Shown here: positions 23,899-55,043 of the stretch, piece by piece
Position numbering within the stretch: position 1 is the stretch's first letter
Layout of the letters: every line of letters begins with the position of its first letter
Source: Bacteroidaceae bacterium
GTDB taxonomy: Bacteria; Bacteroidota; Bacteroidia; Bacteroidales; Barnesiellaceae_A
Direction of reading: 5' to 3'
DNA length: 64,000 nucleotides
Assembly (NCBI GenBank): GCA_017522135.1
Contig: JAFXAB010000013.1
Span: forward strand, 15,375-79,374
Notes under the pieces: generated by a model
The model's database searches: none
Seen by the model: only the letters and a program-made list of their open reading frames with translations
Told to the model about the DNA's origin: nothing
Program-made: the position numbers and the translations under genes

Positions 23899-23932
23899 AA
23901 AAAAAAGAGTCGCTACAACGATGCAGCGACTC
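23899..23932 (-). terminator. Rho-independent terminator after dsbD
   Basis: gagtcgct (23907-23914) pairs with agcgactc (23925-23932). On the minus strand the hairpin is followed by a run of 8 T (A-run 23899-23906 on plus). Confidence 0.6.
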
Positions 23933-23954
23933 CCATATCTAATGTGCGATTAGA

Positions 23955-25898
23955 TTAATAGTTGTCCTTACCTGTGTTAAGGAACTCCAAGAAGTGTTCT
24001 ACGTTCTTGTCGAAGGCATAAGAACCTGAGAGAGGATTACCCTCGTTGTCGAGAATTACGTAGAAAGGTTGAGCATTTGCACCGAATTTGTAACGTTGCA
24101 AGAAGCTCCACTTGTCACCTACGGTCTTCAATGTACGTTTTTGACCATTCTCTACTACTTCCATGGGAACAGCAAGAGGTGTCTTGTCGTCAACATAGAG
24201 CGATACGAGGATAAAGTCTTCGCGCATGATGTCGCGTACTTTGTCGTCGGTCCATACAGAAGCCTCCATCTCACGGCAGTTTACACAACCGTAACCTGTG
24301 AAGTCAACCAATACGGGCTTACCGGCTTGCATAGCAGCTTGCATACCTTGCTCGTAGTCGTGGTACTCGGCCTCAACCTCGTCAACATAGAGGCTGAAGT
24401 CTTGTGTATACATGGGAGGAGCAAATGCGCTGACAGCCTTACAGGGAGCACCCCACAAACCGGGAACCATGTAGATGGCAAATGCGAATGAAATCATAGC
24501 CAAGAAGTAGCGGGGAACCGATACATAAGGAAGCTCGTCGTCGTGGGGGAATTTGAGTTTACCTACCAAGTAGAAGCCCATTGAAGCGAAGATTACAATC
24601 CACAAAGCGAGGAATGTAGGACGGTTGAGCAAGCCCCAACCATAAGCGAGGTCGGCTACCGAGAGGAACTTCAATGACAATGCGAGCTCGATGAAACCAA
24701 GCACAACCTTGATGCTGTTCATCCAACCACCCGAGCGAGGAGCAGACTTAAGCATTGAGGGGAAGAGTGCAAAGAGTGTGAAAGGCAATGCCAATGCAAC
24801 AGCAAAACCAAACATACCCATGGTAGGAGCAATGATTGAACCTGTAGTTGAAATCTCTACCAACAAGAAACCGATGATAGGACCTGTACAAGAGAACGAT
24901 ACGAGAGCCAAAGTAAAGGCCATGAAGAAGATACTCAACAAACCGGTAGTCTTCTCGGCCTTGCTATCGATGGCGTTGCTCCAAGAAGCGGGAAGTGTAA
25001 TCTCGAATGCACCAAAGAACGAAGCTGCAAAGATAACCAACATCAAGAAGAAGATGATGTTAAATACAGCATTGGTCGAGAGCGCATTCAAGGCACTTGC
25101 ACCAAAGATAAGTGTAACAAGGAGACCCAATGTTACGTAAATAACGATGATGAAGATACCGTAAGTGATAGCATCACGTATACCTTGCGAACGGTCTTTA
25201 GAGCGTTTCAAGAAGAAGCTCACTGTCATAGGGATGATAGGCCATACACAGGGAGTAAACAAGGCTACCAAACCGCCCACGAAACCGGCAATGAAAATAG
25301 CAAACAAAGATTGGCTTGCAGCAGCATCTTCTGTTGCTTGATCACCGGCTTGGCTCAATTGCTCAATAACAGGAGTCCACAAAGGATTGGCTACAGCAAT
25401 ATCCTCTACGGGAGTCTCTTCCGATACAGCAACAGCACCCTTTGAATAGTTGAAGGGCGACTCTACGGGCATACATGCACCGTCGGTACATGCTTGACCT
25501 TCCAAGAGACCTTCAAAGCGATAGTTTTCGGGGTCGGCAATTTTGAGGCGTTGTACGAAAGAACCCACGTTTGAAAAATAATTTACATTCATCTCAAACA
25601 TTGCATCGTACTCGGTGTGTACTTCACCTACACTTTGCAATTCACCGTCAAGTTCTACACCTTCCATTACATCTACACGCAATGCAGCAGGCATAGGACC
25701 ATCCTCGGGTACATCGGTAGTGTACAAGTGCCAGCCATCTTCAATAGCAGCATTGAACACCAATTCGGCCTCGGTATCCGAAACCATTTTCAACTCCTGA
25801 GTCCATTTTACAGGCTCAAGCATTTGCGCAAAAGCAACGTTGCAGCAAGCCAACAACGCAGCCAAGCATAGCATAGTTTTTCTGATTTGAGTTTTCAT
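23955..25898 (-). CDS. dsbD: Protein-disulfide reductase, DsbD family (three-domain form)
   Basis: 647 aa. It has a signal peptide plus an N-terminal domain with GQACTDGACMP. The central multi-TM core has Cys in TM segments (FTPCVWPIIP, SFSCTGPIIG). The C-terminal thioredoxin domain carries GYGCVNCREME. Confidence 0.88.
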   Translation of the reverse strand: MKTQIRKTMLCLAALLACCNVAFAQMLEPVKWTQELKMVSDTEAELVFNAAIEDGWHLYTTDVPEDGPMPAALRVDVMEGVELDGELQSVGEVHTEYDAMFEMNVNYFSNVGSFVQRLKIADPENYRFEGLLEGQACTDGACMPVESPFNYSKGAVAVSEETPVEDIAVANPLWTPVIEQLSQAGDQATEDAAASQSLFAIFIAGFVGGLVALFTPCVWPIIPMTVSFFLKRSKDRSQGIRDAITYGIFIIVIYVTLGLLVTLIFGASALNALSTNAVFNIIFFLMLVIFAASFFGAFEITLPASWSNAIDSKAEKTTGLLSIFFMAFTLALVSFSCTGPIIGFLLVEISTTGSIIAPTMGMFGFAVALALPFTLFALFPSMLKSAPRSGGWMNSIKVVLGFIELALSLKFLSVADLAYGWGLLNRPTFLALWIVIFASMGFYLVGKLKFPHDDELPYVSVPRYFLAMISFAFAIYMVPGLWGAPCKAVSAFAPPMYTQDFSLYVDEVEAEYHDYEQGMQAAMQAGKPVLVDFTGYGCVNCREMEASVWTDDKVRDIMREDFILVSLYVDDKTPLAVPMEVVENGQKRTLKTVGDKWSFLQRYKFGANAQPFYVILDNEGNPLSGSYAFDKNVEHFLEFLNTGKDNY

Positions 25899-25934
25899 AT
25901 TTCTATTTAGTTATGTGTCTCTTTTAACGCATGC

Positions 25935-25963
25935 AGAGACGCACTTACTGAATGTGCGTCTCT
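25935..25963 (-). other. Hairpin between the T9SS cargo gene and dsbD (no U-tract)
   Basis: agagacgcac (25935-25944) pairs with gtgcgtctct (25954-25963). The minus strand has no T-run after it, so it is a weak terminator at best and read-through into dsbD is plausible. Confidence 0.4.
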
Positions 25964-26000
25964 ACATACTATAGGAGTATGTCTGTCCTTTGACCTTATT

Positions 26001-27902
26001 TTACAATACAACCTTGTGTGTTGTTGCCACTCCATTGCAAACAACATTCACCAAGTAAACGCCACGACCTGCAACACGGCAGTCTACAACCGACTTACCT
26101 GTTACATAACGAGGTGAGGCAGCGTATACCAAACGGCCATCGGTGGCATAAACATTTACCTCAACATCGGCATCGGCATTAATCTCTACACGTATACCGC
26201 CGTTGGTTGCGTAGGCACGGGTAGCAGCATCTCTCTCAATGGCATCTACCGATGTAGGATCACTGATAGTGCTACACTTGGCCGCATTCAATACCATACC
26301 GGTCTCAAAGTCAAGAAGAAGTACGATAAATTCGCAGTTCTCTATATTAAATATATTGGCAGGTATTGTACTTACTTCGGCGTAGTGCTTGTATGTCACG
26401 TCCATATCTATTGCAGTAGGGACACTACCGGCAATACCCTCACCGATGTTGTCGGTAATGATGTAGCGCACTACATCGTCATAGAACATATCGGCGGCAG
26501 GAACGGGGTTAGCTTTATTCTCATAGTCAGCCATCTGACCATATTGACCACCGGCATAGTAGTTTGTTTGGTCATAGTTGTTGTTACCGGGTTGGTTTAC
26601 ATCATCCTCTACGATAACATACTCAAGACGAGTATCCAAGTTGCGAGCATTGAGTGCAAAAGTTGTGTTGGTAGTAAGCAAAATACCACTCTTTGTATCG
26701 TCAATCCACTCGGCAGAGATAGCTATATCGGCCAATGCGGGAGTATTGATATAGTCATTGTACAAAGTGGGGAAGTCAGAGGGGTCGCATTGGGCTGTAG
26801 CTTGATCGCGTTGTACACGACCCAAGGGAGCGCCTGCACCACCACCTGTTGATGTAGAGAAGTAGTTGCTATAGTCATAATATTGCATAATGTCGTTGAT
26901 GTGCGATGCAATACCAATGTAAGTATCGGGATACATTTCGTCCATCTTCTCCATGAACACATGACCACGAACACACCAGCCACACCAAGTACCTGTTTGC
27001 TCCTCACACACTACGCGCTTGGTAGGTTGGTAAGCTTGTGTGATGATTTCGCCTTGAGCTGTTACAGTCTCAGTACCATTAACGAGTACCGACACCTCAA
27101 AGAATTGACCCTCACCGGCTGTAGGCGCGGGAAGTGTCTCATCAAATTGGAATACATAAGCAGCACCGGCTTCGATAGTCAAGTTCTCCTCAGCATGACG
27201 TGTAGTGAAATCGCCACAAGTAAGTGTTGCATCGATAGATGTTACAGCGTCGCCATAACCGGCAGTAAGCTCAACAGCGATGCGTTGTCCTGTAGCAGCA
27301 TTCTCTTGCAAACGTGTATATTGGGCCTTTACAGTAGCAATAGGCAACACACCTACAAAGAGATTATCAACAACGAGCATATCTTTACCACGGCTCTTGT
27401 TAATGATGGCAATGTACACTGTTTGACCGGCATAAGCCGACAAGTCAACACCAAAATTACCCTCGGTAATAAGCTCATCGGCAAGCAATACAGTTGTAAA
27501 GTCTTCGATTGCCACACCGGTAGTTGAGAGTTTCACATCAACTGTAGCAACACGTTGTGTATTGCTATAAGCCACAGTATAAGCATCGAACGACAATGTA
27601 TTACCCTCGCCCAATGTGATAGCGGGAGTGACAAGCCAATCTTCGGCAGTAGCAGTAGCTTTCTTGTGCGAAGAGTTGCTCATTGCCACATATTCCTTTT
27701 CGATAGTACCGAAAATCCATGAAGCACCATCGGCCGAGAAACCATACTTTTGTGCTGTTACTGAAGGTACAGCACCGTCTTGGTCGTAGCAAGTAAATCC
27801 TTCACCACCGTTGGTAAAATCCCATGACCAGGGCGCATCAACCGCAAGGGTTGCACACACTGCACAAAGAGACAATACCGATGTCAAAAATAATTTCTTC
27901 AT
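26001..27902 (-). CDS. T9SS-sorted surface protein: choice-of-anchor-J-like N-domain, Ig-like domain, Omp28-like thioredoxin-fold CxxC domain and a T9SS CTD
   Basis: 633 aa with a signal peptide. The N-domain has DWLVTPAI...VYIAIINKS..VVDNLFV. The motif CEEQTGTWCGWCVRG is present. The C-terminus GVYLVNVVCNGVATTHKVVL is typical of T9SS sorting domains. Confidence 0.65.
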   Translation of the reverse strand: MKKLFLTSVLSLCAVCATLAVDAPWSWDFTNGGEGFTCYDQDGAVPSVTAQKYGFSADGASWIFGTIEKEYVAMSNSSHKKATATAEDWLVTPAITLGEGNTLSFDAYTVAYSNTQRVATVDVKLSTTGVAIEDFTTVLLADELITEGNFGVDLSAYAGQTVYIAIINKSRGKDMLVVDNLFVGVLPIATVKAQYTRLQENAATGQRIAVELTAGYGDAVTSIDATLTCGDFTTRHAEENLTIEAGAAYVFQFDETLPAPTAGEGQFFEVSVLVNGTETVTAQGEIITQAYQPTKRVVCEEQTGTWCGWCVRGHVFMEKMDEMYPDTYIGIASHINDIMQYYDYSNYFSTSTGGGAGAPLGRVQRDQATAQCDPSDFPTLYNDYINTPALADIAISAEWIDDTKSGILLTTNTTFALNARNLDTRLEYVIVEDDVNQPGNNNYDQTNYYAGGQYGQMADYENKANPVPAADMFYDDVVRYIITDNIGEGIAGSVPTAIDMDVTYKHYAEVSTIPANIFNIENCEFIVLLLDFETGMVLNAAKCSTISDPTSVDAIERDAATRAYATNGGIRVEINADADVEVNVYATDGRLVYAASPRYVTGKSVVDCRVAGRGVYLVNVVCNGVATTHKVVL

Positions 27903-27914
27903 ATAAGTACGTTA

Positions 27915-28670
27915 TTAGCGAACTACAATCTTTTGTGATTTCACGTTGCGGCCACCTTCAACCAAGGTATATACATAAACACCTTTGGGAAGACGATCGA
28001 GTGCAACCTCACCATTGTTACCATCGAGAGCAACAGTAGCTACACGAGCACCTACAATGTTGGTAACAACGAGGCTACGCTCGGCAACAGCGTCAAATGC
28101 ATAGTTGCATACGAGGTTATCACCACGTTGGAATACTTTAATGTTATTGGCCATGCTAGCACCGTGAAGTGCGGCAACACGTGAGTAGTCGAATACTACA
28201 GTTACATAAGTAAGGTCATCTTCATTGGCAGTGTTAACCATCACGAAGTCCGCCTTAACAAATGCATCTTTGTAACCCATCATAGCATCTGACATGATAC
28301 CGAAAGCGATGTGAACCTCGCAATCAGGCTCACCGGCAGCATTTACTATGAAGGGAGGAGCTGTTACACTTGCACCTGCAACACATTGTGTAGTACAGAT
28401 AGTCATTTGGTCACCAAAGCCCATACCTTCCAAGTTTTCGTATTTGTTCTCGTAGCTATCATATGAGATTTGTACTTCTACATCCTTACCGGTATTGTTC
28501 TTAAAACCAACATGCCAAGGCATCTCACCCATAGTGGGATCATATTCAAGAACATCAACAACAGCACCATCTTCAAGCACCTCACCGTTATATACAAATT
28601 GTACAGAGGGTTGTGCTTGTGCGCATATTGCAGCAACAGCAGCAACAGCAAAAAGTAAAATTTTCTTCAT
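27915..28670 (-). CDS. Small secreted protein with a T9SS C-terminal sorting domain
   Basis: 251 aa with the signal peptide MKKILLFAVAAVAAICAQA and the C-terminus LPKGVYVYTLVEGGRNVKSQKIVVR. Confidence 0.6.
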   Translation of the reverse strand: MKKILLFAVAAVAAICAQAQPSVQFVYNGEVLEDGAVVDVLEYDPTMGEMPWHVGFKNNTGKDVEVQISYDSYENKYENLEGMGFGDQMTICTTQCVAGASVTAPPFIVNAAGEPDCEVHIAFGIMSDAMMGYKDAFVKADFVMVNTANEDDLTYVTVVFDYSRVAALHGASMANNIKVFQRGDNLVCNYAFDAVAERSLVVTNIVGARVATVALDGNNGEVALDRLPKGVYVYTLVEGGRNVKSQKIVVR

Positions 28671-28709
28671 ACTATATCCTTTCTTTAATAATTTATATTC
28701 TTCCTATAA

Positions 28710-29552
28710 TTATTGTGCTACAACAGCAGCTTGGTTGCATTGCAACACACGCTTGCTTGAGTTTTCATACACAAACACTACAACCGCGCAGTTCTCAGGA
28801 ACCCATTCTTTGCTGAAATTGGCAGTGCATGTATATGTTTTCTTTTCACCTGCAGGAAGCGACTCGATGCTCTCGCCCCATGTACCATTGGCTGCGGCAC
28901 GGAACACATGGTAGTGCTCATACTCCTCGTCAATAACATCGCCGGGCTTCAACTGCATACCGATAACGTTCTCAACGATTTGCACTTGCAAGTTGAGGTC
29001 GGCGGGCATGTTTTCATAAGCTTCTATTTCGGTAGTTACCGAAAGTTCACGAGTCTCGTCATTGGCTTTATATGTTAATGTTACAGTAGGTATCACCTCG
29101 CATATAGGCTCTTTACCGAGCTCCGATATAGCGTAAGTCATCCATTTCTCTTTGGTGCGCACAGCCCAGTCTTCGCCCGAAAACTGCTCGCGATTGAGCA
29201 ATGCTGCAGGATTACCTTGTACACCAAAGGTGTTATAATAAGTATTACCGTCGGCAGTAATGAACTTTTGCTTGGCAAACTCACCGGTGGGCATAGCCAA
29301 CATACCTGCATGAATACCTACAACCATCACACGACCGGGATAGTACTCTTGTATTTCATGAACGATGGCGGCACCATCGGGACAGTTGACACATTTATGA
29401 CCGGTAAATTCCTCGATAAGCAAACGTTGTACACGCTCACCGGCTTGATCCTCTACCTCAATGTAACGATCGTTCTCGGGGATAACATCACACGACACGA
29501 AGGCTACCAATGCAAAAACAGATGCTATAATATTTAATAATGTGCGTTTCAT
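28710..29552 (-). CDS. Omp28-related lipoprotein with a thioredoxin-like CxxC motif
   Basis: 280 aa with a lipoprotein signal (ALVAFVSCDV), IEEFTGHKCVNCPDG (Cys54/Cys57) and no CTD. Confidence 0.65.
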   Translation of the reverse strand: MKRTLLNIIASVFALVAFVSCDVIPENDRYIEVEDQAGERVQRLLIEEFTGHKCVNCPDGAAIVHEIQEYYPGRVMVVGIHAGMLAMPTGEFAKQKFITADGNTYYNTFGVQGNPAALLNREQFSGEDWAVRTKEKWMTYAISELGKEPICEVIPTVTLTYKANDETRELSVTTEIEAYENMPADLNLQVQIVENVIGMQLKPGDVIDEEYEHYHVFRAAANGTWGESIESLPAGEKKTYTCTANFSKEWVPENCAVVVFVYENSSKRVLQCNQAAVVAQ

Positions 29553-29558
29553 ACTTTA

Positions 29559-31220
29559 TCAGAAGTTATAAGAGTAAGCAATTTGTACACCACGGGTAGC
29601 GGGAATGTAACGGCATACACCACCGGCGCAGTTGTAACCGGCGCGTGTGCGCACATAACCGGCTTGCAAACGGTGTGAACCGATAGTACCTGTTACGAGT
29701 GCTTGATAATAGTGTATGTTGGTTTCACCAACGTTCCACATATCGGCTACGGTAAACATCAAGTGAGGCAATACCGAAACCTCTACAAGACCATACAACC
29801 AGTCGCCTTGGTCTTGCTTGGTATTAAGGTATTGCAACTCCATACGAGCTGTCACCTTCTTGCTTATTTGGTATTTACCGTCAAGCACAATGATGTGTGA
29901 GTCGATCATACCACCCTCACCTTCGATAACCGATTTGTTGTACTTTTGGAACATATACATGGCTGTCAACTTGAAGTCTTTTGTAAACTTCTTGCTAAGT
30001 TCGATACCGGCCTCGGCATAGAACAAATCGCCCATACCGAAGAAATCGGATGTGTAACCATTCGAGCCCATTACACCATATTTACCCATGGGAGCATTCA
30101 ACGAACCACCATCGACAAAGTTGCGCTCGATATCATAGATAAGCGAACCACGCAACACGAGGTCGGTACCATACTTACCACCGAGGGGTGTCTTGCGGGG
30201 GAACTTATAACGGAACTCGCCTTGGAACGCCCACTCGCCCATCAATTGTGTTGCATAGGGGTAGAGGGCTGCCAACGCATAGGTGTGTTGGTATGAGAAT
30301 GCGGGCAAGTAGTTGATGTAACATGATGACGAAACGGGGTCGGCACTACGCTCGGTGCGGAATGCAAAGTTGTCGCTGCGCTTGGCTTGAACAAAGAAAC
30401 TCAAACCTCTTTGCGAATAAGAGGCCGACAACATGGCCACCTGACCGGGCTTGTAGATATAGCCGTTGCTGGCTGTGGGGTCATTGGCTTTGTAGGCATA
30501 CTCGGCCAAAAGGTCGAAACCTCCTGCACCAAATTTAAGGCGAGCATCAAACGCACCTACATTGGCGGGAAGATTGAGACGATATTGAGGTGTTGCATAG
30601 ATTACCTCATCGCCCTCATGACGCGACACATAAGATGCACCCAACATCAATCGGATATTATTCTCAGCGAGAGGCTTAAACCACTCATCAAAGCCCATCT
30701 CAACATCGGCTCCCCAAATAGCGGCATCGGTCCACTCCCAATAGTGGCGTTGAATACCACCGAGAGCTTTCAAGCGCACACCGGGTATGATAGATGTCTT
30801 AATACGACCACCCAAGATGGCATTATCGACACCCAACGAACGCTCCTCATAACCATAGAGGACAAAACCACTACCGAATTGCTCATAGAAAGTACCGGCA
30901 GTAATTTCGGTGTTTGCCACATTACCGGTCACAAAGAAATGAGGAATACCCCAACCCTTGAAATCGTTCTCAAAACCGGGGAGGGGGAACTCCAAGAACT
31001 CACCACGCAATCCGGCCGAGATGTACTGGCTGTGAACATTCAATGTAAGATAGGTATTGGTATTGAAATCACCGGTATACTCTGTACCGATAGCCTCATC
31101 TTGTTGAGGCACGAGCATATCGCTCTGTATACTACCGGTAACAGTAGCCGTGCCCAAGTCAACGGCATACATGCCGAGACTTGCGCACGCCATTAATGCG
31201 AGTGCTATGTGTTTTTTCAT
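29559..31220 (-). CDS. Outer-membrane beta-barrel protein (DUF6029-like)
   Basis: 553 aa with a signal peptide, an alternating beta-strand pattern throughout, a C-terminal YNCAGGVCRYIPATRGVQIAYSYNF and a terminal Phe typical of OMPs. The family name is from memory and unverified. Confidence 0.6.
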   Translation of the reverse strand: MKKHIALALMACASLGMYAVDLGTATVTGSIQSDMLVPQQDEAIGTEYTGDFNTNTYLTLNVHSQYISAGLRGEFLEFPLPGFENDFKGWGIPHFFVTGNVANTEITAGTFYEQFGSGFVLYGYEERSLGVDNAILGGRIKTSIIPGVRLKALGGIQRHYWEWTDAAIWGADVEMGFDEWFKPLAENNIRLMLGASYVSRHEGDEVIYATPQYRLNLPANVGAFDARLKFGAGGFDLLAEYAYKANDPTASNGYIYKPGQVAMLSASYSQRGLSFFVQAKRSDNFAFRTERSADPVSSSCYINYLPAFSYQHTYALAALYPYATQLMGEWAFQGEFRYKFPRKTPLGGKYGTDLVLRGSLIYDIERNFVDGGSLNAPMGKYGVMGSNGYTSDFFGMGDLFYAEAGIELSKKFTKDFKLTAMYMFQKYNKSVIEGEGGMIDSHIIVLDGKYQISKKVTARMELQYLNTKQDQGDWLYGLVEVSVLPHLMFTVADMWNVGETNIHYYQALVTGTIGSHRLQAGYVRTRAGYNCAGGVCRYIPATRGVQIAYSYNF

Positions 31221-31251
31221 AGACTATATATCTACTTCGTCGTTTTAAAGA

Positions 31252-31758
31252 TTATTTTTTAAGCAAAGCTCTTACAGCTTCAATGAGGTGTTCCTCCGAA
31301 CCATCGGTGTATTGAGTACGAGTCTCCACAATGTTGTTTTTACCATCAATGATAAATACAGTGGGAACCATGTTTACACCCATAGCACGCTTAAAGTCGC
31401 CATTGGGGTCAAGCAACACTTGATACTCATAACCTTTGCTGTTTACAAGGGGTTTCACCTTCGACTCATCTTGAGCCTTGTCGATAGACACTGCGATAAG
31501 TTTTACGCCGGTCTCCTCTTGCCAGTCGGCATATACCTCGTTTACGGCATCAAGCTCACGCAAACAGGGCTTGCACCAAGTAGCAAAGAAACTGATGATA
31601 TAAGGCTTACCATCATTGTTCAACTTGGCAGTATCGACGCGCTTGCCATCGATATCTTTCAATTGTACTGAAGGAAGCTCAGCAAAAGCTGATACACTCA
31701 AAAACAATGCCACTACGGCTAACAAAAACTTTTTCATAATAGTGTGTTTATTTTTCAT
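31252..31758 (-). CDS. TlpA/ResA-like periplasmic thiol:disulfide oxidoreductase
   Basis: 168 aa with a signal peptide and FFATWCKPCLRE (thioredoxin-fold WCxxC). An alternative start is MKKFLL at 31737. Confidence 0.85.
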   Translation of the reverse strand: MKNKHTIMKKFLLAVVALFLSVSAFAELPSVQLKDIDGKRVDTAKLNNDGKPYIISFFATWCKPCLRELDAVNEVYADWQEETGVKLIAVSIDKAQDESKVKPLVNSKGYEYQVLLDPNGDFKRAMGVNMVPTVFIIDGKNNIVETRTQYTDGSEEHLIEAVRALLKK

Positions 31759-31978
31759 TAATATTCTTACACAATTGTTTTCTTTAAGACTTTAAAAAAC
31801 CAGATAGGTTTAATATCCTCCACTTTTTTTTCAATCCATAAGCCCAAGAGGCTCTCCATCCATACGCAAAAACTATTAAGAGCCACTTTTACAGTGCAAA
31901 GATAATGTTTTTTGCAACAACTCTGCAAATATATAACAATTTTATTATTTGTTAAGCTAAAAAACATACCACACAAGT

Positions 31979-33618: not shown

Positions 33619-34431
33619 ATGAAAAAATCTATATTTTTCGCAGGCGTTGTAGCGTTATTGTTTACCACTTCTTGCCAACTATCCAAGAAAGTACCCTACA
33701 TGCAACAAATAGACGAAGTACCTGCCGAAGTATTTACCGAAGCTCCTATTGTACCCGAACAGATTATCCGTCCCGGAGACCTTCTTGATATAACCGTTAT
33801 GGCAACCGACCGTACTGCAGTACAACCCTTCAACCGCCGTGTGGTAGACGTGATGACAGTGCGTTCTTCATCGTCACACGGACAAGAAGAATTGAACTAT
33901 TATCTTGTAGACAACAGCGGTTGTATCGATATGCCTGTATTGGGACGCATCAAGGTGCAGGGTATGACCAAGAGTGAACTTGAGGACCACATACGCTACC
34001 AGATATATCCCAAATATATCCACGAAGTACCCTCGGTAACTGTACGATTTGAGAATTTCCGTATATCGGTTATCGGTGATGTGGTAAAACCCGGCTCATA
34101 CACCATCCCCAACGAGCGCGTCAATCTTCTTGAAGCATTGGCCTTGGCAGGCGACCTCAATATCACCGGACGTCGCGACAACGTGCTACTTGTGCGCATC
34201 AACGCCGACGGCTCACGCACAACAGCTCGTCTCGACCTCAATGACAAAGAGCTCATTATGTCGCCCTACTTCTATCTGCAACAAAACGACGTTATATACG
34301 TTGAGCCCAACCACTCTAAGGCAGCCAACGCATACTCTGTACCTCCTACAGCGTCTATAGCCATCAGTGCTACCAGCGTTGCTATATCGGCCGCAACACT
34401 TATCATGACAATTTTGAACTATTCAAGATAA
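33619..34431 (+). CDS. wza: Polysaccharide export outer-membrane protein (Wza-like)
   Basis: 270 aa with a lipoprotein-like signal (FTTSCQ), Poly_export/SLBB-like strings (IRPGDLLDITV, GDVVKPGSY) and a C-terminal TM helix. Confidence 0.8.
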   Translation: MKKSIFFAGVVALLFTTSCQLSKKVPYMQQIDEVPAEVFTEAPIVPEQIIRPGDLLDITVMATDRTAVQPFNRRVVDVMTVRSSSSHGQEELNYYLVDNSGCIDMPVLGRIKVQGMTKSELEDHIRYQIYPKYIHEVPSVTVRFENFRISVIGDVVKPGSYTIPNERVNLLEALALAGDLNITGRRDNVLLVRINADGSRTTARLDLNDKELIMSPYFYLQQNDVIYVEPNHSKAANAYSVPPTASIAISATSVAISAATLIMTILNYSR

Positions 34432-34437
34432 CGAATA

Positions 34438-36879
34438 ATGGAAAACAATTATCAAAACAACCCAATCGAACAAAGCGAAGAGCAAGGATTCGACATCACA
34501 TTATTTCTCCTTGAGTGTCTTTCCAAGTGGAAATGGTTTGTATTAAGTCTTTTCATTGTAATAGGATTAGCCGGATTTTACATCCTCTGCCAAGTACCTT
34601 CATACAAAGTTGACTCGCTAATTCTCATTATTGACAAGTGGTCGAAGACCGAGGGTGACGTGTTGACTCAAAGCTTGGGTATTACGTCGGGAGCCGACAA
34701 CATCATTACCGAAATACAGGTAATGCGCTCACGCACAATCACAAAGAAGATTGTCAACGACCTTGAGTTGCATACAAAATATGAATACAAAGGCAACCTG
34801 CGCAACACTCCGTTGTACAACAATACACCTATAGTCGTGAAACCCGACTCTACGACAGACCTCGGCTTGTTGCAGACCGGCATAAACCTGTCAATAACAC
34901 GTCCCGGCGATAAAAACACATACGACATCAAGGGAAAATACACCATGAGAACAAGTGCGTATGTGGAGGGTGAAGAGAAAGAAATAGACCTCACCGATGT
35001 GCAACTCCCCTACACACTCTATCTGCCTACAGTTGGAACATTTGTTATAGAACAGGTGGCAGGATATGAACCTTTAAACAAGACGCTGTTGGTGAATGTA
35101 ACCAATCCCAACGAAGTAGCCATCAAGCTCTCAAAGGAGATAGCATTGGCTCAATTTGAGAAAACTGCACCGCTCATCTCGGCATCATATACCACTCCCA
35201 TACCTAAAATGGGTGTCGACATCATCAACCGCATGGTACACTACTATAACGAAGAGGGTGTTGCCGAGAAGAATCTTGCATCGACCAATACCGAGGCTTT
35301 TATTACCAACCGTCTTGTCTCTATACAGAAAGAACTGTCGGATGTAGAAGAAGATGTTGAGCAATATCGCACACAACGTGGTCTTACCGACCTCTCTTCC
35401 GAGGCCGAAATATACCTCAAGCAAACCAGCGAGTCGGACAAGGAACAAAGTCGTCTTGACGTACAATTGAACCTTATCGAATATGTAGAAAACTTCTTGG
35501 CCAACCCCGAGAACACATACTCTCCCATTCCTATCCTGGGTATCGATGAGGGTGGTATGAGCAACCTCATCACCGAGTATAACAAGGCTATTGCCGAGCG
35601 CGAAAGACTCTTGAACTCATCGAGCGAAAGCAACCCCGTCATCAAAGAGATATCGCAAAACATCATGGCTCTTAAGAGCACAGTATTGCAAGGTATTGCC
35701 GCTACTCGCAAGAGCATTGAGTTGAGCAAGAAAGATATAGCTCGCCAAGATGCCGAGAACGAGCGCAAGATACGCAACGTACCGCAATATGAGCGTGAAC
35801 TTACCGACATCATGCGTCAACAACGCATCAAAGAGAACTTGTATGTGTTCCTCTTGGAAAAACGCGAAGAGAACGCCTTGACACAAACCCTTGCAGTGGG
35901 TGATGCCCGTATCATCGACGAACCTACTACACTGCCCTATCCCGTAGCTCCCAAGAAGGCTCAAATTGCTCTCATTGCATTGGTATTGGGTATGATTATT
36001 CCTGCCGGTGTCATATATATCAAGAGCTTGATATTCCCCTCGTTCCACGACAAGGTCGAATTGGAGAAACTTACACAAATACCGGTATTGTCGGAGATAC
36101 CAAGTTGCAACAAAGACGAGTTCTTCGTTGTAAAGGAGAAGAGCAACAATACAGCCTCGGAGCTATTCCGTCTGCTGCGTAACAACTTGCAATTCACCCT
36201 CACATCGCCCGACAAGAAAGTTATCATGGTGACATCGTCGGTATCGGGCGAAGGTAAGACCTTTATATCTTCAAACCTTGCAATGGCATTTGCTCATGCA
36301 GGCAAGAAAGTATTGTTGGTAGGTCTTGACATACGTCGTCCCATGGCTGCATTGCACTTCGGATTTGACAACAAGAAGGGTATAACCAACTATCTGTCGG
36401 GACAAGAGACCGATATGGAAAGCATTATAATGCACACCAGCACCAAAGGTCTTGACATCATACCCGGTGGTCCTGTACCTCCCAACCCAAATGAGTTGCT
36501 TCTCACCGAAAAACTCGATACTTTGATGATCGAAATGCGCAAACGCTACGACATCATTATTATCGACTCGGCTCCTGTGGGTATGGTATCAGACTCTTTC
36601 TTGATAGACCGCATTATCGACACAACATTGTTCGTTACACGCTCTAAGTACACTTCAAGAAGCCATGTAAAGAACATCAATGCCTACTCGGCCAACGGTC
36701 GCTTGAGATCGCTATACCTCTGTATCAATGCTGTTGATATGACCACTCGTACCTATTCATACCGTCGCTACGGTTATGGCTACGGTTATGGTTACGGCAG
36801 CTACGGATATGGTGACGACAACAACAAGAGCAAGAAGAAATCAAAGAAAAGCAAATTTCCCTTCATGAAGGAGAAATAA
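34438..36879 (+). CDS. wzc: Polysaccharide co-polymerase / tyrosine autokinase (Wzc-like)
   Basis: 813 aa with a Wzz-like N-terminal half and two TM segments, a Walker A in the kinase domain (SSVSGEGKTF), and a Tyr-rich tail YSYRRYGYGYGYGYGSYGYG followed by a Lys-rich end. Confidence 0.85.
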   Translation: MENNYQNNPIEQSEEQGFDITLFLLECLSKWKWFVLSLFIVIGLAGFYILCQVPSYKVDSLILIIDKWSKTEGDVLTQSLGITSGADNIITEIQVMRSRTITKKIVNDLELHTKYEYKGNLRNTPLYNNTPIVVKPDSTTDLGLLQTGINLSITRPGDKNTYDIKGKYTMRTSAYVEGEEKEIDLTDVQLPYTLYLPTVGTFVIEQVAGYEPLNKTLLVNVTNPNEVAIKLSKEIALAQFEKTAPLISASYTTPIPKMGVDIINRMVHYYNEEGVAEKNLASTNTEAFITNRLVSIQKELSDVEEDVEQYRTQRGLTDLSSEAEIYLKQTSESDKEQSRLDVQLNLIEYVENFLANPENTYSPIPILGIDEGGMSNLITEYNKAIAERERLLNSSSESNPVIKEISQNIMALKSTVLQGIAATRKSIELSKKDIARQDAENERKIRNVPQYERELTDIMRQQRIKENLYVFLLEKREENALTQTLAVGDARIIDEPTTLPYPVAPKKAQIALIALVLGMIIPAGVIYIKSLIFPSFHDKVELEKLTQIPVLSEIPSCNKDEFFVVKEKSNNTASELFRLLRNNLQFTLTSPDKKVIMVTSSVSGEGKTFISSNLAMAFAHAGKKVLLVGLDIRRPMAALHFGFDNKKGITNYLSGQETDMESIIMHTSTKGLDIIPGGPVPPNPNELLLTEKLDTLMIEMRKRYDIIIIDSAPVGMVSDSFLIDRIIDTTLFVTRSKYTSRSHVKNINAYSANGRLRSLYLCINAVDMTTRTYSYRRYGYGYGYGYGSYGYGDDNNKSKKKSKKSKFPFMKEK

Positions 36880-39784: not shown

Positions 39785-40312
39785 ATGCGCCATACAAACG
39801 ATACATTGTTAATTTCTCGGGTCATGCTGTTCGACGATCGACGTGCTTTTGCCACGCTCGTCGAGCAGCATCAGCCCACCATTCGGCGCTTTTTCCTACA
39901 CCAAACCATGGGCGATGAGATGCTTAGTGACGACTTGGCACAAGAGACGTTTATCAAGCTCTACTACTCCATCAAGCAATTTAAGGGCTTGGCAAACCTC
40001 TCGACATACCTCTACCGCATAGCCTATAATGTTTTGCAAGACCATTTGCGTCGCAACAGGTTTACCCACACGACCGATATCATACCCGAATGTGTTATAT
40101 CAACCCACAACGACACACACATAGACATTACCCGCGCACTGCAACAACTCACACCCACCGAGCGTGCCGCCATTACACTCTATTACATTGACGATCGCAA
40201 GGTAGAAGATGTTGCCTCGATACTGCAATTGCCTGCAGGAACAGTCAAATCGCACCTATCACGCGCTCGCAACAAAATAGCCGATTTTCTTAAAAACAAT
40301 GGATATGAATAA
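39785..40312 (+). CDS. ECF-type RNA polymerase sigma-70 factor
   Basis: 175 aa with region 2 (DDLAQETFIKLY..YLYRIAYN) and region 4 (ERAAITLYYIDDRKVEDVASILQLPAGTVKSHLSRARNKI). Confidence 0.88.
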   Translation: MRHTNDTLLISRVMLFDDRRAFATLVEQHQPTIRRFFLHQTMGDEMLSDDLAQETFIKLYYSIKQFKGLANLSTYLYRIAYNVLQDHLRRNRFTHTTDIIPECVISTHNDTHIDITRALQQLTPTERAAITLYYIDDRKVEDVASILQLPAGTVKSHLSRARNKIADFLKNNGYE

Positions 40313-40640
40313 CAACGCCTTACACCACGACGAAGAAAAGTTGGTAAAAGAATTTCTCAAGGCTCACACCCACGAGCCTCGCCCCAATGTGTGGTTTACC
40401 AAGCGTACGATAAACAAGCTACCCGAGCACCGGTCAAGCACTTGCAAGATAATCATGTGCATCACCACGCTCCTATCGGTAGTAGCGTGTGGCGTATTGC
40501 TATACCTGTTACCCAACGATATTATAACGCTCGACGAGAACAATATCACGCGCTCTTTGTTATCTATATACACAGCAATGGCCGGTATGATTATACTCGT
40601 AGCCTTGCAAGTAATACGATTGATAAAGACATACTTCTGA
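40299..40640 (+). CDS. Putative anti-sigma factor or membrane protein
   Basis: 113 aa. It overlaps the sigma gene by 14 nt (translational coupling) and has two TM helices. The assignment rests only on context. Confidence 0.45.
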   Translation: MDMNNNALHHDEEKLVKEFLKAHTHEPRPNVWFTKRTINKLPEHRSSTCKIIMCITTLLSVVACGVLLYLLPNDIITLDENNITRSLLSIYTAMAGMIILVALQVIRLIKTYF

Positions 40641-44975: not shown

Positions 44976-47900
44976 ATGAAGAAAACACTCTCCATTATCG
45001 TGTGTGCATTGTTGAGCATCTGCTCGGCATGGGCACAGGAAGGTCCTGTTATCAAAAAATTTATTTTTGACGACTCGGCCATTATTAACGGTATGTCGGA
45101 CAACGGCCAATATGCATGCGCCAATGCCTTCAATGCCGAAGATGCACTGATACAAACCGGTGCTCGTCTTATTGAGATTGACACAGAGACAGTAACAGAC
45201 CTGGCTGCAAACTATTCGGCAGGAAGTTACGCTTCAATGGGTACTGCCGACGTTACCAATGATGGTAGCATTGTTGTTGGCGAACTCAATCACAAGCCCG
45301 CCTACTGGTCAAAAGCAAGTGGCAAATGGACCAATCTGCCTTGTGAAGACAGCGAATGGTATGGTGAGGTAAATGCAATCACACCTGATGGTAAGTATGC
45401 CGTAGGTCGTCAATCAATCGACGAAGACGGCTTCTACTCACTACCCGCCTTGTGGGATATGACAACAGGCGAGTTGGTTGAGTGCCTCGGTATACCCGAG
45501 TATGACATGACCGGCCAAAACCAAGACCAAAACTGGTTTAACCAAATCTCGCCCGACGGTAAGCTCATCTTGGGTTGTATCTCTTACAGCTACATATCTG
45601 AGCAACTTTATTATATCTACGATGTTGATAAAAAAAGCTATACACCCATAGGCTTTACCGAAAGCAACAAGCGTTTTACTCCTGTTGTAGAAAATATTCT
45701 TTTTATCAACAGTGCCAACTTCAGCAACAATGCCGAGTGGATAACCGGTCGTGCCTACATCTATAAAGCCTTAGAGGGTAGCGAGTTCGGCAACCAATAC
45801 GAAACAACTTATGTATACAACATAAAGACCGGCGATTTCACGCTCTACGATGCAACATTCGACAGTGACATGGTAGCCAGCGTAATCGACAACAACGGTC
45901 ATGCCATGGCAGCTACACCCAGCGGCACTCCTATCCGCGAGTGGAGCATACGCAACGGTGCATACTGGTTCCCTTTCAACCAAATCCTGAAGCAACAATA
46001 TGGCTATGATTTCTACGCAAAGACCTCTTTTGAGAACACCGGTACACCCTTATTCCTCAGCGATGACAATAAACGCGCTGCTGTAATGGTTGACCCCTAC
46101 TCATCGTATGTAGTAACATTGCCCACCACCTTTAGCGATGCATGTAATGGTGTAGACTTGCTCGGCTCTTACATTATATACCCTCGTGAGGGTGCTACAA
46201 TCTCTCGCCTCAAAGAGATTACATTGACATTCGACCACGACATACAGATAATCGGAGCAAAGACCTGTGTAGAGATACGCAATGCAGCCGGTGACGTTGT
46301 ATACAACTCGATAGGACTTACTGCCAACGGCAAAAAAGCCACTATCACATACCGCAGCGGCTCGCTCAGTGCCGGTGAAAAGTACACCTTACACGTTCCT
46401 GCCGGCTCTATAGCTTTGGCTCAAGACAAATCCATGAGCAACAAAGATATAAACATATCATACAATGGTCGCGAAAATGCCCCTGTGAAGGTAACCACTA
46501 TCTATCCGGCCGAGGGTAGTGCCATTGCCAAGATAGACAACAACACCAATCCTATCGTGCTTACATTTGATGTTCCGGTATACTTGCCCGACTCGGCTAT
46601 CGCCTATCTCTACAAAGAAGATGAAATTGAGCCTATTGCATCTATGCTCATGGCCTACAACAACAATGTAGTGGCTGTATACCCCAACACAACTCAATAC
46701 CTCTTTAAAGACAACAACTATCGCGTAGAGGTAATGCCCGGCTCGGTAACAGACGTAGCCGGTAATGGTGCCAACGAAATAATCACTATCGAATATCAAG
46801 GCAGCTTCGAACGCGAGATTGTTTACGACGACAACTCGTTGCTTATAGAGAACTTCAACACCGTGGGTGTTGCCAACTGCTTGCCTTGGGATGCCGACCG
46901 CAACACTCCCAACAGCCTTGCTCAAGCCATCGGTTTCGACCGTCACGATTATGGCTGGGCTATCGCATGGGACGAAAACGACAACAATATTGCCGCATCG
47001 TCACACTCAATGTACGATCCCGCAGGTAAGAGCAACGACTGGCTCATCATTCCTCAACTATACATACCCGATGAGAAATGCGCCCTATCGTTCTTGTCAC
47101 AAAGTTTCATGAGCGGCTACCAAGACTACTTGAAGGTATACATCTGGGCCAACGACGAGGTTATCGATATGCCCAGCGACGAGTTGGTAAACCGCTTTGC
47201 TCAAGAGGCCGACTTGGTATACAACGAATTGCAATCGCCCGGCAACGATGACAACACCCTCGCCGGTGACTGGAAAGAGAATTACATAAACCTTGCCAAC
47301 TATGCCGGCAAGAACATTTACATTGCATTTGTAAACGACAATGAAAACCAAAGTGCCGTCTTTATCGACGATGTAATGGTATCGCACAACAAGCCATTCC
47401 GCATTGCCTTCACAAATGAAACATCGGTTGTAGCTCTCAACGAAATTCTCATCGAGGGAGCAATGTCTATCGACTCAGATACCGACGTATACGAGTCTAT
47501 CTCTCTCACGCTCACCGACATGTCGGGCAATGATATAGAGACTATCAACGAGACAGGACTATCACTCAAGAAAGGTGATGTATATAAATTTGCTTTCACC
47601 AAAGCATTGCCTTTGACTGTAGGTTTGGAAAATAAATTTACACTCAAGGTTGTATGCAACGACAACCAATATGATATAGACGGCAAGATTACCAATCTTG
47701 CATTTGAGCCTGTCAAACGCGTAGTTCTTGAAGAAATCTCGGGTATGGGATGTCAAAACTGTCCTCTCGGTTTCATCAGTATCGAGAAGATACATGACTT
47801 GTATGGCGACTTGTTCATTCCTATTTGTATCCGCACTTTCCAAGATCCTCTTGGTGCCGGCCTTACCAGCTATACCGACTTCCTTGGTCTATCGGCAGCA

Positions 47901-48731
47901 CCTTCGGGTGTCATCAACCGCAAGAGCATCAGTTTCCCCGCTGTTTCATACAACGGCGACTACTACTTCAGCAATGCTCAACTCCCCGCAGGAGGCGATA
48001 AAATGTGGCTCGATATCGTAGGTGAAGAGCTGGAAATACCTACCGAGGCCGATATCGCAATTGGCGAAATGGGAGTAGATGCAACAACCAACGAATTTGT
48101 CATCCCCTGTACTATCAGATACGCATTGGATGCCGAAAATAGCAACCTCAACCTCTTCACCGTTGTTATGGAGGACTATGTATCATCTATGCAAAAGAAC
48201 GGTTTCTCTTCAATAGAAGCAGAGAGTCTTGGCGAATGGGGCAAGGGTGGCTTGTATGGTCAAAGCCTTGTAATGGATTATAACCTGCTTGATGTATGTC
48301 GCTCATACGAGGGTATGACATTCAATGGCACAGGTGGCTACTTCCCCCAAGAAATTGTAGCCGGCCAAGAATATACTGCCGAGATTCGCACTAAGGTTCC
48401 TGCAACAATAGGCAACCTTGCCAACTGCAAGATTGTAGTAATGTTGATAGATGCCAACACCGGTGCATACATCAATGCAGCCCTCAGCAACAACTTTACA
48501 GGTGTACATAACATCAGCAATAATGCCAATGCTACCGTAACCACTGCCAACGGCAAGATTATCGTTACCACAACCGATGATGCTCGTGTAGAGGCTTATA
48601 GCACAAACGGTACTATGTTGGGCACTACCTATGGCAATGGCCATATCTCGCTTGATGCTCCTGCCGGTATTGCTATCGTCAAGGTGGTAACAGGCAATGA
48701 TGTTACAGTAACAAAAGTTCTTGTAAAATAA
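44976..48731 (+). CDS. Giant multidomain T9SS cargo protein: PD40-like beta-propeller, Ig-like repeats, choice-of-anchor-J-like domain, Omp28-like CxxC domain and a CTD
   Basis: 1251 aa with a signal peptide and recurring xDGxxxxG blade-like motifs (SDNGQYA, TNDGSIVVG, TPDGKYAVG, SPDGKLILG, DNNGHAMA). It has SbsA-type Ig-like segments (IYPREGATISRLKEITLTFD, IYPAEGSAIAKI), NDWLIIPQLYIP...IYIAFVNDN..FIDDVMV, the motif LEEISGMGCQNCPLG, and a C-terminal GIAIVKVVTGNDVTVTKVLVK. Confidence 0.65.
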   Translation: MKKTLSIIVCALLSICSAWAQEGPVIKKFIFDDSAIINGMSDNGQYACANAFNAEDALIQTGARLIEIDTETVTDLAANYSAGSYASMGTADVTNDGSIVVGELNHKPAYWSKASGKWTNLPCEDSEWYGEVNAITPDGKYAVGRQSIDEDGFYSLPALWDMTTGELVECLGIPEYDMTGQNQDQNWFNQISPDGKLILGCISYSYISEQLYYIYDVDKKSYTPIGFTESNKRFTPVVENILFINSANFSNNAEWITGRAYIYKALEGSEFGNQYETTYVYNIKTGDFTLYDATFDSDMVASVIDNNGHAMAATPSGTPIREWSIRNGAYWFPFNQILKQQYGYDFYAKTSFENTGTPLFLSDDNKRAAVMVDPYSSYVVTLPTTFSDACNGVDLLGSYIIYPREGATISRLKEITLTFDHDIQIIGAKTCVEIRNAAGDVVYNSIGLTANGKKATITYRSGSLSAGEKYTLHVPAGSIALAQDKSMSNKDINISYNGRENAPVKVTTIYPAEGSAIAKIDNNTNPIVLTFDVPVYLPDSAIAYLYKEDEIEPIASMLMAYNNNVVAVYPNTTQYLFKDNNYRVEVMPGSVTDVAGNGANEIITIEYQGSFEREIVYDDNSLLIENFNTVGVANCLPWDADRNTPNSLAQAIGFDRHDYGWAIAWDENDNNIAASSHSMYDPAGKSNDWLIIPQLYIPDEKCALSFLSQSFMSGYQDYLKVYIWANDEVIDMPSDELVNRFAQEADLVYNELQSPGNDDNTLAGDWKENYINLANYAGKNIYIAFVNDNENQSAVFIDDVMVSHNKPFRIAFTNETSVVALNEILIEGAMSIDSDTDVYESISLTLTDMSGNDIETINETGLSLKKGDVYKFAFTKALPLTVGLENKFTLKVVCNDNQYDIDGKITNLAFEPVKRVVLEEISGMGCQNCPLGFISIEKIHDLYGDLFIPICIRTFQDPLGAGLTSYTDFLGLSAAPSGVINRKSISFPAVSYNGDYYFSNAQLPAGGDKMWLDIVGEELEIPTEADIAIGEMGVDATTNEFVIPCTIRYALDAENSNLNLFTVVMEDYVSSMQKNGFSSIEAESLGEWGKGGLYGQSLVMDYNLLDVCRSYEGMTFNGTGGYFPQEIVAGQEYTAEIRTKVPATIGNLANCKIVVMLIDANTGAYINAALSNNFTGVHNISNNANATVTTANGKIIVTTTDDARVEAYSTNGTMLGTTYGNGHISLDAPAGIAIVKVVTGNDVTVTKVLVK

Positions 48732-54592: not shown

Positions 54593-54907
54593 TTAAAGCA
54601 AAGCTTTTACTTTCTCCTCAAGTTGAGCTTTATTGGCCGAACCTACGTGTTTGTCAACCAATTTACCGTCTTTGAAGAACAACAGAGTGGGGATGTTACG
54701 AATACCGTATTCGCCACTGATCTCATCACCTTCATCCACATTGTATTTACCGATTGTTACTTGACCCTCATATTGAGCTGCAAGTTCGTCTACAAAAGGA
54801 CCTATTTGGCGGCAAGGACCGCACCACTCAGCCCAGAAGTCAATCACTACGGGTTTGCCCGATGCGATAAGTTCTTTTCCTAATTCGTCTGTAATTTTAA
54901 GTGCCAT
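54593..54907 (-). CDS. trxA: Thioredoxin
   Basis: 104 aa, with WAEWCGPCRQ and a canonical length. Confidence 0.93.
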   Translation of the reverse strand: MALKITDELGKELIASGKPVVIDFWAEWCGPCRQIGPFVDELAAQYEGQVTIGKYNVDEGDEISGEYGIRNIPTLLFFKDGKLVDKHVGSANKAQLEEKVKALL

Positions 54908-55043
54908 AGTATTTCAATTTAAGTGTTAATAATATCTTTTTAGGCTCTACAAAAATAAGAAATGAAATATTATAATACAAGTAATTTGCACACTAAATTT
55001 TATAATTAATGATAAAAGAATTGTCTTTATCACATCTCTTTTG

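Follow-up and report, generated by a model that had tools for sequence, protein, structure and literature searches.

What joins a TlpA-like protein, an outer-membrane barrel, a cysteine-bearing lipoprotein, two surface proteins of the T9SS (type IX secretion system), and DsbD in one gene cluster? The question was raised by six genes at 23955-31758 in a 64,000-nt stretch of contig JAFXAB010000013.1 from Bacteroidaceae bacterium (assembly GCA_017522135.1), which we call the window; the source belongs to an uncultured Bacteroidaceae-type lineage of metagenome-assembled genomes (MAGs), and its nearest relative is a MAG from water-buffalo rectum. All six open reading frames (ORFs) lie on the minus strand, and their gaps from tlpA to dsbD of 31, 6, 39, 12, and 102 nt, reported in an initial annotation of this DNA, agreed exactly with the ORF listing and its translations. 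We found the core of the cluster to be a conserved Bacteroidota outer-membrane module composed of a TlpA/ResA-type protein, a DUF6029 barrel, and an Omp28-family lipoprotein. The function that we favor, at roughly even confidence, is a dedicated reductive branch leading from DsbD to the TlpA-like protein that would serve envelope proteins of the Omp28/HBP35 fold, with the barrel and the lipoprotein forming an outer-membrane complex.

We scanned a genome collection with a DUF6029 alignment, which returned at least 598 loci, and analyzed the best 80 by ORF and hidden Markov model (HMM) searches. These loci came from Prevotellaceae, Muribaculaceae, and "Bacteroidaceae" and had barrel identities of 49 to 94%. 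The genes for the TlpA-like protein, the DUF6029 barrel, and the Omp28 lipoprotein followed each other in this fixed order on one strand in all of them, and the recurrence of this order in 80 independent loci takes the observation beyond chance. The triad was also present in metagenome loci of Porphyromonas gingivalis (L086), with a TlpA-like protein of 160 aa, a DUF6029 protein of 581 aa, an Omp28 protein of 290 aa, and a 249-aa PorA ORF; all the cysteine motifs were found there, and unrelated genes followed porA. It further flanks Omp28 homologues of just 28 to 32% identity (L004 and L092). The redoxin gene of L093 runs divergently instead of co-directionally, suggesting that the linkage outlasts rearrangement, and the contig of L094 ends before the position of the redoxin gene. 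Triads without a PorA-like gene were found in L004, L074, L093, and L094.

A conserved Cys pair was found in every module protein, including the PorA-like protein (C92/C96) and most of the large cargo. The initial annotation had made its proposal depend on conservation of the neighborhood, DsbD included, beyond close relatives, which held for the TlpA-barrel-Omp28 triad but not for dsbD, a lineage-specific neighbor found within 10 kb of the module in only 5 of the 80 loci. Our literature search found no description of this gene combination, nor of Omp28 with TlpA or DsbD as an operon, and PG2174, PG2175, and PGN_0124 to PGN_0126 appear there only as entries in proteome or array lists. The statement that no characterized function is known for the combination agrees with this search, but it overlooked HBP35, a closely related protein that has been characterized.

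The Omp28-family lipoprotein (28710-29552, minus strand; 280 aa) scored 201.7 bits against NF033782, the Omp28-family model (cut-off, 150), and 100.1 bits versus 34.9 against PF11551. It has an FVSC lipobox and the CxxC motif EEFTGHKCVNCP, formed by C54 and C57, and it has no T9SS C-terminal domain (CTD). Among 27 homologues with identities down to 22%, T50, G51, C54, C57, P58, and P115 were invariant, as a check on the CxxC cysteines had called for, and a Y-x-H-x-H..R motif in the immunoglobulin (Ig)-like sandwich was nearly so; the CxxC was kept in all 80 loci. The AlphaFold2 (AF2) model (predicted local distance difference test [pLDDT] score, 90.9) presents a β-α-β-α-β thioredoxin-like domain, as had been anticipated, in which the CxxC stands where helix 1 begins; the Ig-like sandwich comes after this domain. 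Its first match in a Foldseek search of the PDB was HBP35 (5y1a; E value, 2.6e-11; template modeling [TM] score, 0.65), followed by 2axo (DUF1223) and 2r2c (Omp28). The lipoprotein also partly matches the NCBIfam model "Omp28-related selenoprotein," which implies that the first Cys position has, in this family, a catalytic role in redox chemistry. P. gingivalis Omp28 (PG2173) shares with it the NCBIfam family, the lipobox, the CxxC, the operon position, and, as YEHNHVLR, the YxHxH..R motif. The crystal structure of that protein, 2r2c, comprises the C-terminal domain only and leaves out the thioredoxin-like domain, which is why the redox nature of Omp28 has gone largely unnoticed.

The barrel gene lies directly upstream of omp28 (29559-31220, minus strand; 553 aa with a signal peptide). 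Its product matched PF19494 (DUF6029) at 577 bits against a gathering threshold of 27 (E value, 5e-173), with protein residues 1 to 553 aligned to model positions 1 to 538, and a profile sequence search found no relative of it in the PDB. The C-x4-C motif YNCAGGVCRYIP ("NCAGGVCR") stands immediately before the last strand, and the protein ends in Phe; judging from this position, the motif probably sits in the last extracellular loop. It was found in all 80 loci and in 126 of the 127 full-length representatives family-wide, the family comprising 1256 representative clusters. The cysteine motifs that had been read in the barrel (with its terminal Phe), the lipoprotein, the TlpA-like protein, and the 633-aa cargo were all present in the translations, and HMM searches agreed with the protein identities proposed, including the guesses of DUF6029 (PF19494) and Omp28 (NF033782).

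The first gene (31252-31758, minus strand; 168 aa) encodes a protein whose translation reads as a signal peptide and the motif FFATWCKPC. It matched AhpC-TSA, Redoxin, and Thioredoxin_8 in HMM searches, and its closest models were ResA, StoA, DsbE, and TlpA, with scores under the equivalog cut-offs for ResA (76.5 versus 170), DsbE (46 versus 123), and TlpA (44.5 versus 230). By these scores, it is a general member of the TlpA/ResA family and not an orthologue of any characterized enzyme. WC[KH]PC is kept in 79 of the 80 TlpA-like orthologues, and the P. gingivalis orthologue reads NCKPC. Relatives of TlpA and ResA classically serve the maturation of heme or copper sites.

The fourth gene (27915-28670, minus strand; 251 aa) had been described as encoding a CTD protein. 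The CTD was recovered (TIGR04183 T9SS sorting domain, 26.5 bits; cut-off, 23; type A), but a homology to PorA, which links the module to T9SS regulation and export, had been missed. This homology is seen only through profiles, structure, and synteny: a pairwise phmmer search of the protein against the PDB found nothing, and the pairwise link to PorA also fails. A gene for 165 to 285 aa directly follows omp28 in 57 of the 80 loci, and a profile of these small proteins matched the N-domain of PorA (6kjk) with an E value of 0.0024 over profile positions 27 to 158, the Cys pair being aligned; hhalign to full-length P. gingivalis PorA gave a probability of 98.2%. Since clustering of the full-length proteins was partly driven by the CTD, it was repeated on N-domains only, and 53 of the 57 loci then had a PorA-family gene, forming a pairwise cluster of 53 members that includes P. 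gingivalis PorA. The window clade (L005 and L006) stands outside this cluster in pairwise comparison and is rejoined by profile methods only, an HMM of the 53 N-domains finding the window N-domain at an E value of 1.3e-4 and its relatives at values down to 2e-11, and hhalign on N-domains only giving 96.8% with an E value of 2.6e-10.

The structure model of the 251-aa protein is consistent with these profile results. Its N-domain has a FimH-like Ig fold with the Cys92/Cys96 pair, and the AF2 model (pLDDT, 84) matched 6kjk in Foldseek with an E value of 2.6e-6, a target TM score of 0.72, and a root mean square deviation of 3.5 Å, the best-quality superposition in the Foldseek list. C92 and C96 are invariant in the alignment of its relatives and align to the CFGxxC of PorA. 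The 251-aa protein and PorA (PGN_0123/PG2172) thus share the slot right after omp28, a length of 246 to 251 aa, the N-domain fold, the Cys92/Cys96 pair, and the T9SS CTD, although their identity is only about 17 to 22% and is missed by pairwise searches. From profiles and model together, we take the gene to encode a divergent PorA homologue. The P. gingivalis loci PG2172 and PG2173 encode PorA and Omp28, respectively. As a T9SS cargo, PorA binds the sensor kinase PorY through its CTD, which activates the PorXY-SigP pathway (PMC12152298); according to published reports, it needs no T9SS machinery to reach the surface, and its homologues are confined to Porphyromonas. PorY binding and the regulation of T9SS genes by PorA-type proteins are known in P. 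gingivalis only. As a separate observation, two PorA-like proteins of Muribaculaceae end in a type I dockerin and not in a T9SS CTD, one by a PF00404 match (L024, 12459-13148; E value, 1e-10) and the other by a repeat read in the alignment (L018, 3381-4064).

The large surface cargo encoded next (26001-27902, minus strand; 633 aa) has a choice-of-anchor J/cleaved-adhesin-like domain at residues 58 to 182. In hhalign, the Omp28 profile matched its residues 290 to 602 over the whole profile length (probability, 98%; E value, 2.9e-13), and a thioredoxin-like plus sandwich module of the HBP35/Omp28 type spans about 290 to 560. The CxxC lies in EEQTGTWCGWC, a region that aligns to HBP35; the HxH motif seen in the lipoprotein is replaced here. 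The T9SS CTD is borderline (TIGR04183, 22.6 bits versus 23), and the C-terminus matches a T9SS endonuclease model (E value, 6e-6). Consistent with the idea that surface T9SS cargo sharing the CxxC fold accompanies the triad, large Omp28-domain proteins of 400 to 1330 aa, 71 altogether, were found beside it in 59 of the 80 loci; the strict motif [TS][GAS]xxCxxC is present in 61 of the 71, and most of the other 10 have a CxxC nearby.

The characterized protein nearest to this fold is HBP35 (PG0616; 5y1a), a T9SS surface cargo of P. gingivalis that reduces insulin in vitro by means of C48/C51 (PMC2907840). It complements an Escherichia coli dsbA mutant, binds hemin via its sandwich domain with H204-H206 as proposed ligands, and is needed for growth at low hemin; hemin binding is independent of the CxxC, and hbp35 expression is not hemin-regulated. 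Like HBP35, the window lipoprotein has a thioredoxin-like CxxC domain and an Ig-like sandwich, but it is anchored by a lipid and HBP35 by a CTD. The 633-aa cargo has a borderline match to the T9SS CTD, a domain that HBP35 carries, and differs in having an N-terminal adhesin-like domain and in the loss of the His motif proposed for hemin. On the other hand, hbp35 is monocistronic and unlinked to TlpA or DUF6029, and Omp28 or HBP35-like paralogues also occur as solitary genes without the barrel or TlpA. HBP35-like T9SS thioredoxin proteins of Muribaculaceae are noted in a July 2026 preprint in which the operon is not described.

Another possible relative is the trypsin-recruiting protein 00502 of Paraprevotella clara, a T9SS cargo that is annotated as related to Omp28 and whose large N-terminal region is variable. 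Going by its published description, it is of one class with the 600- to 1300-aa Omp28-domain cargo beside the module and a 1251-aa protein of the window; the 00502 paper reports propeller and Ig-like domains and mentions no thioredoxin motif. We also considered P. clara 00503-00508 as a candidate for the module itself and rejected it. The primer sequences in the supplement matched none of 96 loci at up to 3 mismatches, and P. muris lacks 00503-00508 according to the same paper, while Palleniella muris (L013) has the TlpA-DUF6029-Omp28 module, so that 00503-00508 are probably not this module.

Two more proteins of the Omp28 fold with a CxxC are encoded in the window. The 1251-aa T9SS cargo (44976-48731, plus strand) has a large N-terminal region, a choice-of-anchor J domain at 664 to 802, the motif VVLEEISGMGCQNCP, and a CTD, and proteins of this type with 1265 to 1330 aa adjoin the module in L046, L055, L059, L065, and L092. 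The other (62680-63999, minus strand), cut at the window end, has VLLENFSTAQCGNCP, YKHNHAIRK, and a CTD. With these, at least four Omp28-fold CxxC proteins are encoded within 64 kb. In a Muribaculaceae MAG, an Omp28 paralogue that stands alone (L002, 6758-8777; also L001) directly adjoins phage-like portal and capsid genes in a setting that resembles a prophage boundary.

DsbD passes electrons from cytoplasmic thioredoxin to periplasmic reductases of the TlpA/ResA type. The gene at the 3'-end of the cluster (23955-25898, minus strand; 647 aa) encodes a DsbD in which all three domains that had been assigned to it were matched and bear cysteines, amounting to the full catalytic Cys set. The N-terminal domain (PF11412, DsbD_N; 34 to 147) has the pair in QACTDGAC, the core (PF02683, DsbD_TM; E value, 2e-25) has one Cys in each of two transmembrane helices (TPCVWP and SFSCTGP), and the C-terminal thioredoxin-like domain (PF13899, Thioredoxin_7; E value, 7e-14) has its CxxC in GYGCVNC. 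Against NF001419, it scored 142.9, short of the 330 set for the subfamily. Adjacent dsbD genes were found in the window clade (L005 and L006, with L090/L091 at 81% barrel identity) and, independently, in L074, where dsbD directly follows omp28; in L025 and L044, dsbD lies within 10 kb upstream on the opposite strand. Taken together, dsbD has joined the module on at least three separate occasions (the window clade, L074, and L025/L044). Elsewhere in the window, a canonical cytoplasmic thioredoxin is encoded at 54593-54913 on the minus strand (TIGR01068, 115 bits), presumably belonging to the electron donor class for DsbD.

The cluster forms a single co-oriented unit between promoter-like boxes 5' of tlpA and a terminator 3' of dsbD. 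The boxes are two matches to the Bacteroidetes-type -7 consensus on the minus strand, TATCTTTG (31897-31904) and TATATTTG (31926-31933), placed 140 to 175 nt 5' of the tlpA start as a candidate operon promoter; such matches, which rest on the consensus only, occur about once per 1.9 kb per strand in the window. A scan for sigma-70 promoters found 11 sites against 16.4 expected. At the other end, a hairpin of 13 pairs with a T-run (23905-23934, minus strand) resembles an intrinsic terminator. The 102-nt gap between the 633-aa cargo gene and dsbD contains no TAnnTTTG box, and its stem-loop (25929-25969, minus strand; hairpin 25935-25963) is not followed by a T-run, both as initially described. 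Since there is no promoter box in this gap and the one terminator stands after dsbD, co-transcription of dsbD with the module is plausible from the sequence. The stem-loop has a 10-bp core that extends to 16 bp, with a folding free energy of -32.5 kcal/mol and a z score of -6.3 versus shuffled sequences. In L006, the stem has changed in a compensatory manner, and in L090, another strong hairpin takes its position, which suggests selection for a structure, e.g., an attenuator or stabilizer, and not for the sequence. It is possibly a partial terminator or a transcript-stabilizing element, and it may attenuate read-through into dsbD.

How might these proteins work together? In the function that we favor, electrons would pass from cytoplasmic thioredoxin to DsbD and on to the TlpA-like protein in the periplasm, which would act as a dedicated reductase and protect the Cys pairs of the envelope proteins encoded with it from oxidation for as long as these are in, or face, the periplasm. 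We infer this direction of electron flow, and likewise the clients, of which the main ones would be the CxxC sites of the Omp28 lipoprotein and the HBP35-like cargo, and possible ones the Cys pairs of PorA and the barrel. The clients would then reach the outer membrane or the surface as active dithiols. The barrel and the lipoprotein, encoded side by side without exception, would assemble into an outer-membrane complex. In most Bacteroidales, the triad is followed by genes for a small PorA-family cargo and then for at least one large T9SS cargo combining a variable binding domain with the CxxC thioredoxin-like/Ig module known from HBP35, and in the lineage of the window a three-domain DsbD has been added downstream.

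Several known systems resemble parts of this scheme. DsbD or CcdA reduces proteins of the TlpA/ResA/CcmG type, and those in turn reduce specific envelope clients. The cluster likewise has a DsbD with all its Cys pairs, a secreted WCxxC protein, and a reductase gene beside genes for Cys-pair clients, but the clients of the classical branches are cytochromes or copper proteins, whereas here they would be a barrel, a thioredoxin-like lipoprotein, and T9SS surface cargo, and dsbD is usually encoded apart from this module. Large barrels paired with lipoproteins are known from LptD/LptE and SusC/SusD, and LptD depends on periplasmic thiol-disulfide enzymes. Their genes are likewise adjacent and invariably linked, although we detected no sequence relationship to them. 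In Streptococcus pneumoniae, the membrane transporter CcdA feeds Etrx1 and Etrx2, surface lipoproteins of the thioredoxin family, which act on MsrAB2 (PMC3914529); this organism is Gram-positive and has no outer membrane, the protein families are unrelated, and no Msr partner is encoded here. The literature that we searched does not mention the module or how conserved it is, Omp28 as a redox protein, porA as a member, or the broad distribution of PorA homologues; the parts belong to known families, and the logic of DsbD and TlpA was known.

Several observations weigh against a DsbD-fed branch. dsbD is not within 10 kb of the module in 75 of the 80 loci, nor at the P. gingivalis locus, so that its adjacency in the window may be incidental; a conserved stable hairpin also precedes it there. 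The TlpA-like protein, scoring far below the ResA and TlpA equivalog cut-offs, may be a reductase or an oxidase or isomerase, and HBP35 can stand in for DsbA in an E. coli mutant. The C-x4-C of the barrel could be a mere structural disulfide, the Omp28 lipoprotein could face the periplasm or the surface, and mutants of PorA Cys92 or Cys96 were unaffected in PorXY-SigP signaling (PMC12152298). Other explanations, which are not mutually exclusive, have to be weighed beside it. One, raised in the initial annotation and resting on the same linkage data, is a thiol relay that would span the envelope, from DsbD through TlpA and an Omp28 lipoprotein in or through the barrel to HBP35-like cargo at the surface, and would bring cytoplasmic reducing power outside the outer membrane, e.g., to host or dietary disulfides or for the protection of surface proteins. 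In every case, the barrel gene separates the gene of the periplasmic reductase from that of the CxxC lipoprotein, T9SS CTDs would place the terminal acceptors on the surface, the Cys pair of the barrel is predicted to be extracellular from its position before the last strand, HBP35 combines thioredoxin activity with a surface location, and the CcdA-Etrx lipoproteins offer a Gram-positive analogue (PMC3914529). However, thiol exchange requires direct contact, for which the lipoprotein would have to span or plug the barrel, anaerobic gut and rumen habitats are reducing already, the P. gingivalis operon has no thioredoxin-fold cargo and hbp35 is unlinked to it, and the solitary Omp28 and HBP35-like genes manage without barrel or TlpA. 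To our knowledge, thiol-disulfide exchange across a Gram-negative outer membrane also has no precedent, and we consider such a relay unlikely. The hemin binding of HBP35, its requirement at low hemin, and the HxH motif suggest a possible part in handling heme or metal, with Omp28/HBP35-fold binders whose Cys or His ligands would be kept reduced by TlpA and with the barrel as uptake channel or anchor. ResA and CcmG serve apocytochrome c in a parallel manner, and TlpA serves Sco/CoxB, in keeping with the classical part of this family in maturing heme or copper sites. The YxHxH..R motif is nearly invariant in Omp28 lipoproteins and is also present in P. gingivalis Omp28, and the 633-aa cargo has a cleaved-adhesin-like domain, a type that occurs in the hemoglobin-binding gingipain/HagA adhesins. 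Yet the CxxC of HBP35 is dispensable for hemin binding and the gene does not respond to hemin, the 633-aa cargo has lost the HxH, the module includes no TonB-dependent receptor or heme-uptake gene, and the selenocysteine variants favor catalysis over ligand binding, which together make this function improbable.

In P. gingivalis, porA comes fourth in the operon, and PorA-family genes fill that slot in 53 of the 57 loci with a small fourth gene by N-domain clustering, which raises the question of whether the module serves PorA. The barrel and the lipoprotein could provide a route or dock for PorA that is independent of the T9SS translocon, with TlpA controlling the Cys residues of PorA and Omp28 and the redox state of the envelope thereby coupled to the PorY-SigP control of T9SS genes. 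PorA, reported to reach the surface without the T9SS, would need another export route, and two genes upstream lies the gene of a conserved barrel. Against this, the triad exists in L004, L074, L093, and L094 without the gene, signaling needs only the CTD of PorA and its Cys residues are dispensable, and PorA co-purifies with PorV, Sov, and PorY, with no module partner reported from analyses confined to T9SS proteins; we regard it as decidedly unlikely. More broadly, the barrel and Omp28 could form an outer-membrane conduit that carries thiol reducing equivalents outward, or offers PorA a T9SS-independent route coupling redox to T9SS regulation, or both, to which we assign a low but appreciable probability. 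Lastly, HHpred similarity to DUF6029 has been reported for some Wzi-like barrels linked to outer-membrane polysaccharide export (OPX) genes (PMC9603273), by which DUF6029 would be a polysaccharide-export porin working with a divergent Wza/Wzc pair (33619-36879), and the redox linkage incidental. Genes of the Wza and Wzc type are located upstream of tlpA in the window, at a distance of 1.9 kb, and also in L005, L006, and L090. However, they are within 10 kb of DUF6029 in only 3 to 4 of the 80 loci, while TlpA and Omp28 are in all 80, a serine dehydratase gene intervenes in the window, and the P. gingivalis locus has no OPX gene. We rejected this explanation on synteny as highly improbable.

For DUF6029 (>1,200 representative clusters) and Omp28, two envelope families that are widespread in Bacteroidota but uncharacterized, the module supplies a genomic setting and a role that can be tested. 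It also shows porA, which encodes the ligand of the P. gingivalis T9SS regulator, as the last gene of a conserved tlpA-DUF6029-omp28 operon, and the divergent PorA homologues that we detected across Prevotellaceae, Muribaculaceae, and their relatives among the gut and rumen Bacteroidales contradict the published view of a Porphyromonas-only protein. The barrel is a candidate route for the still unexplained appearance of PorA on the surface without the T9SS. A reductive branch of this kind suggests how Bacteroidales may keep surface HBP35-like thioredoxin-fold proteins active, which bears on how heme is acquired, how oxidative stress is tolerated, and how disulfide-rich host proteins are processed in gut and mouth. 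There is a minority chance of a categorically new system, either a thiol conduit or an alternative outer-membrane export route. A thiol conduit, if true, would be a non-heme electron path across a Gram-negative outer membrane, and "Omp28-related" T9SS cargo, possibly including the trypsin-inactivating Paraprevotella 00502, would reduce disulfides of extracellular targets. P. gingivalis is genetically tractable, and these ideas can be tested there.

Two further neighbors of the module were observed. About 8 kb from it in the window, an extracytoplasmic function (ECF) sigma factor-like gene is followed by a gene for a small membrane protein, possibly an anti-sigma factor (39785-40640, plus strand). 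In L090 (1-700) and L091 (699-2523), which have 81% barrel identity, a radical SAM enzyme and a short Cxxx-repeat peptide gene (PF27846), resembling a system for ribosomally synthesized and post-translationally modified peptides, lie about 8 to 10 kb upstream; no such pair was seen at the equivalent position of the window.

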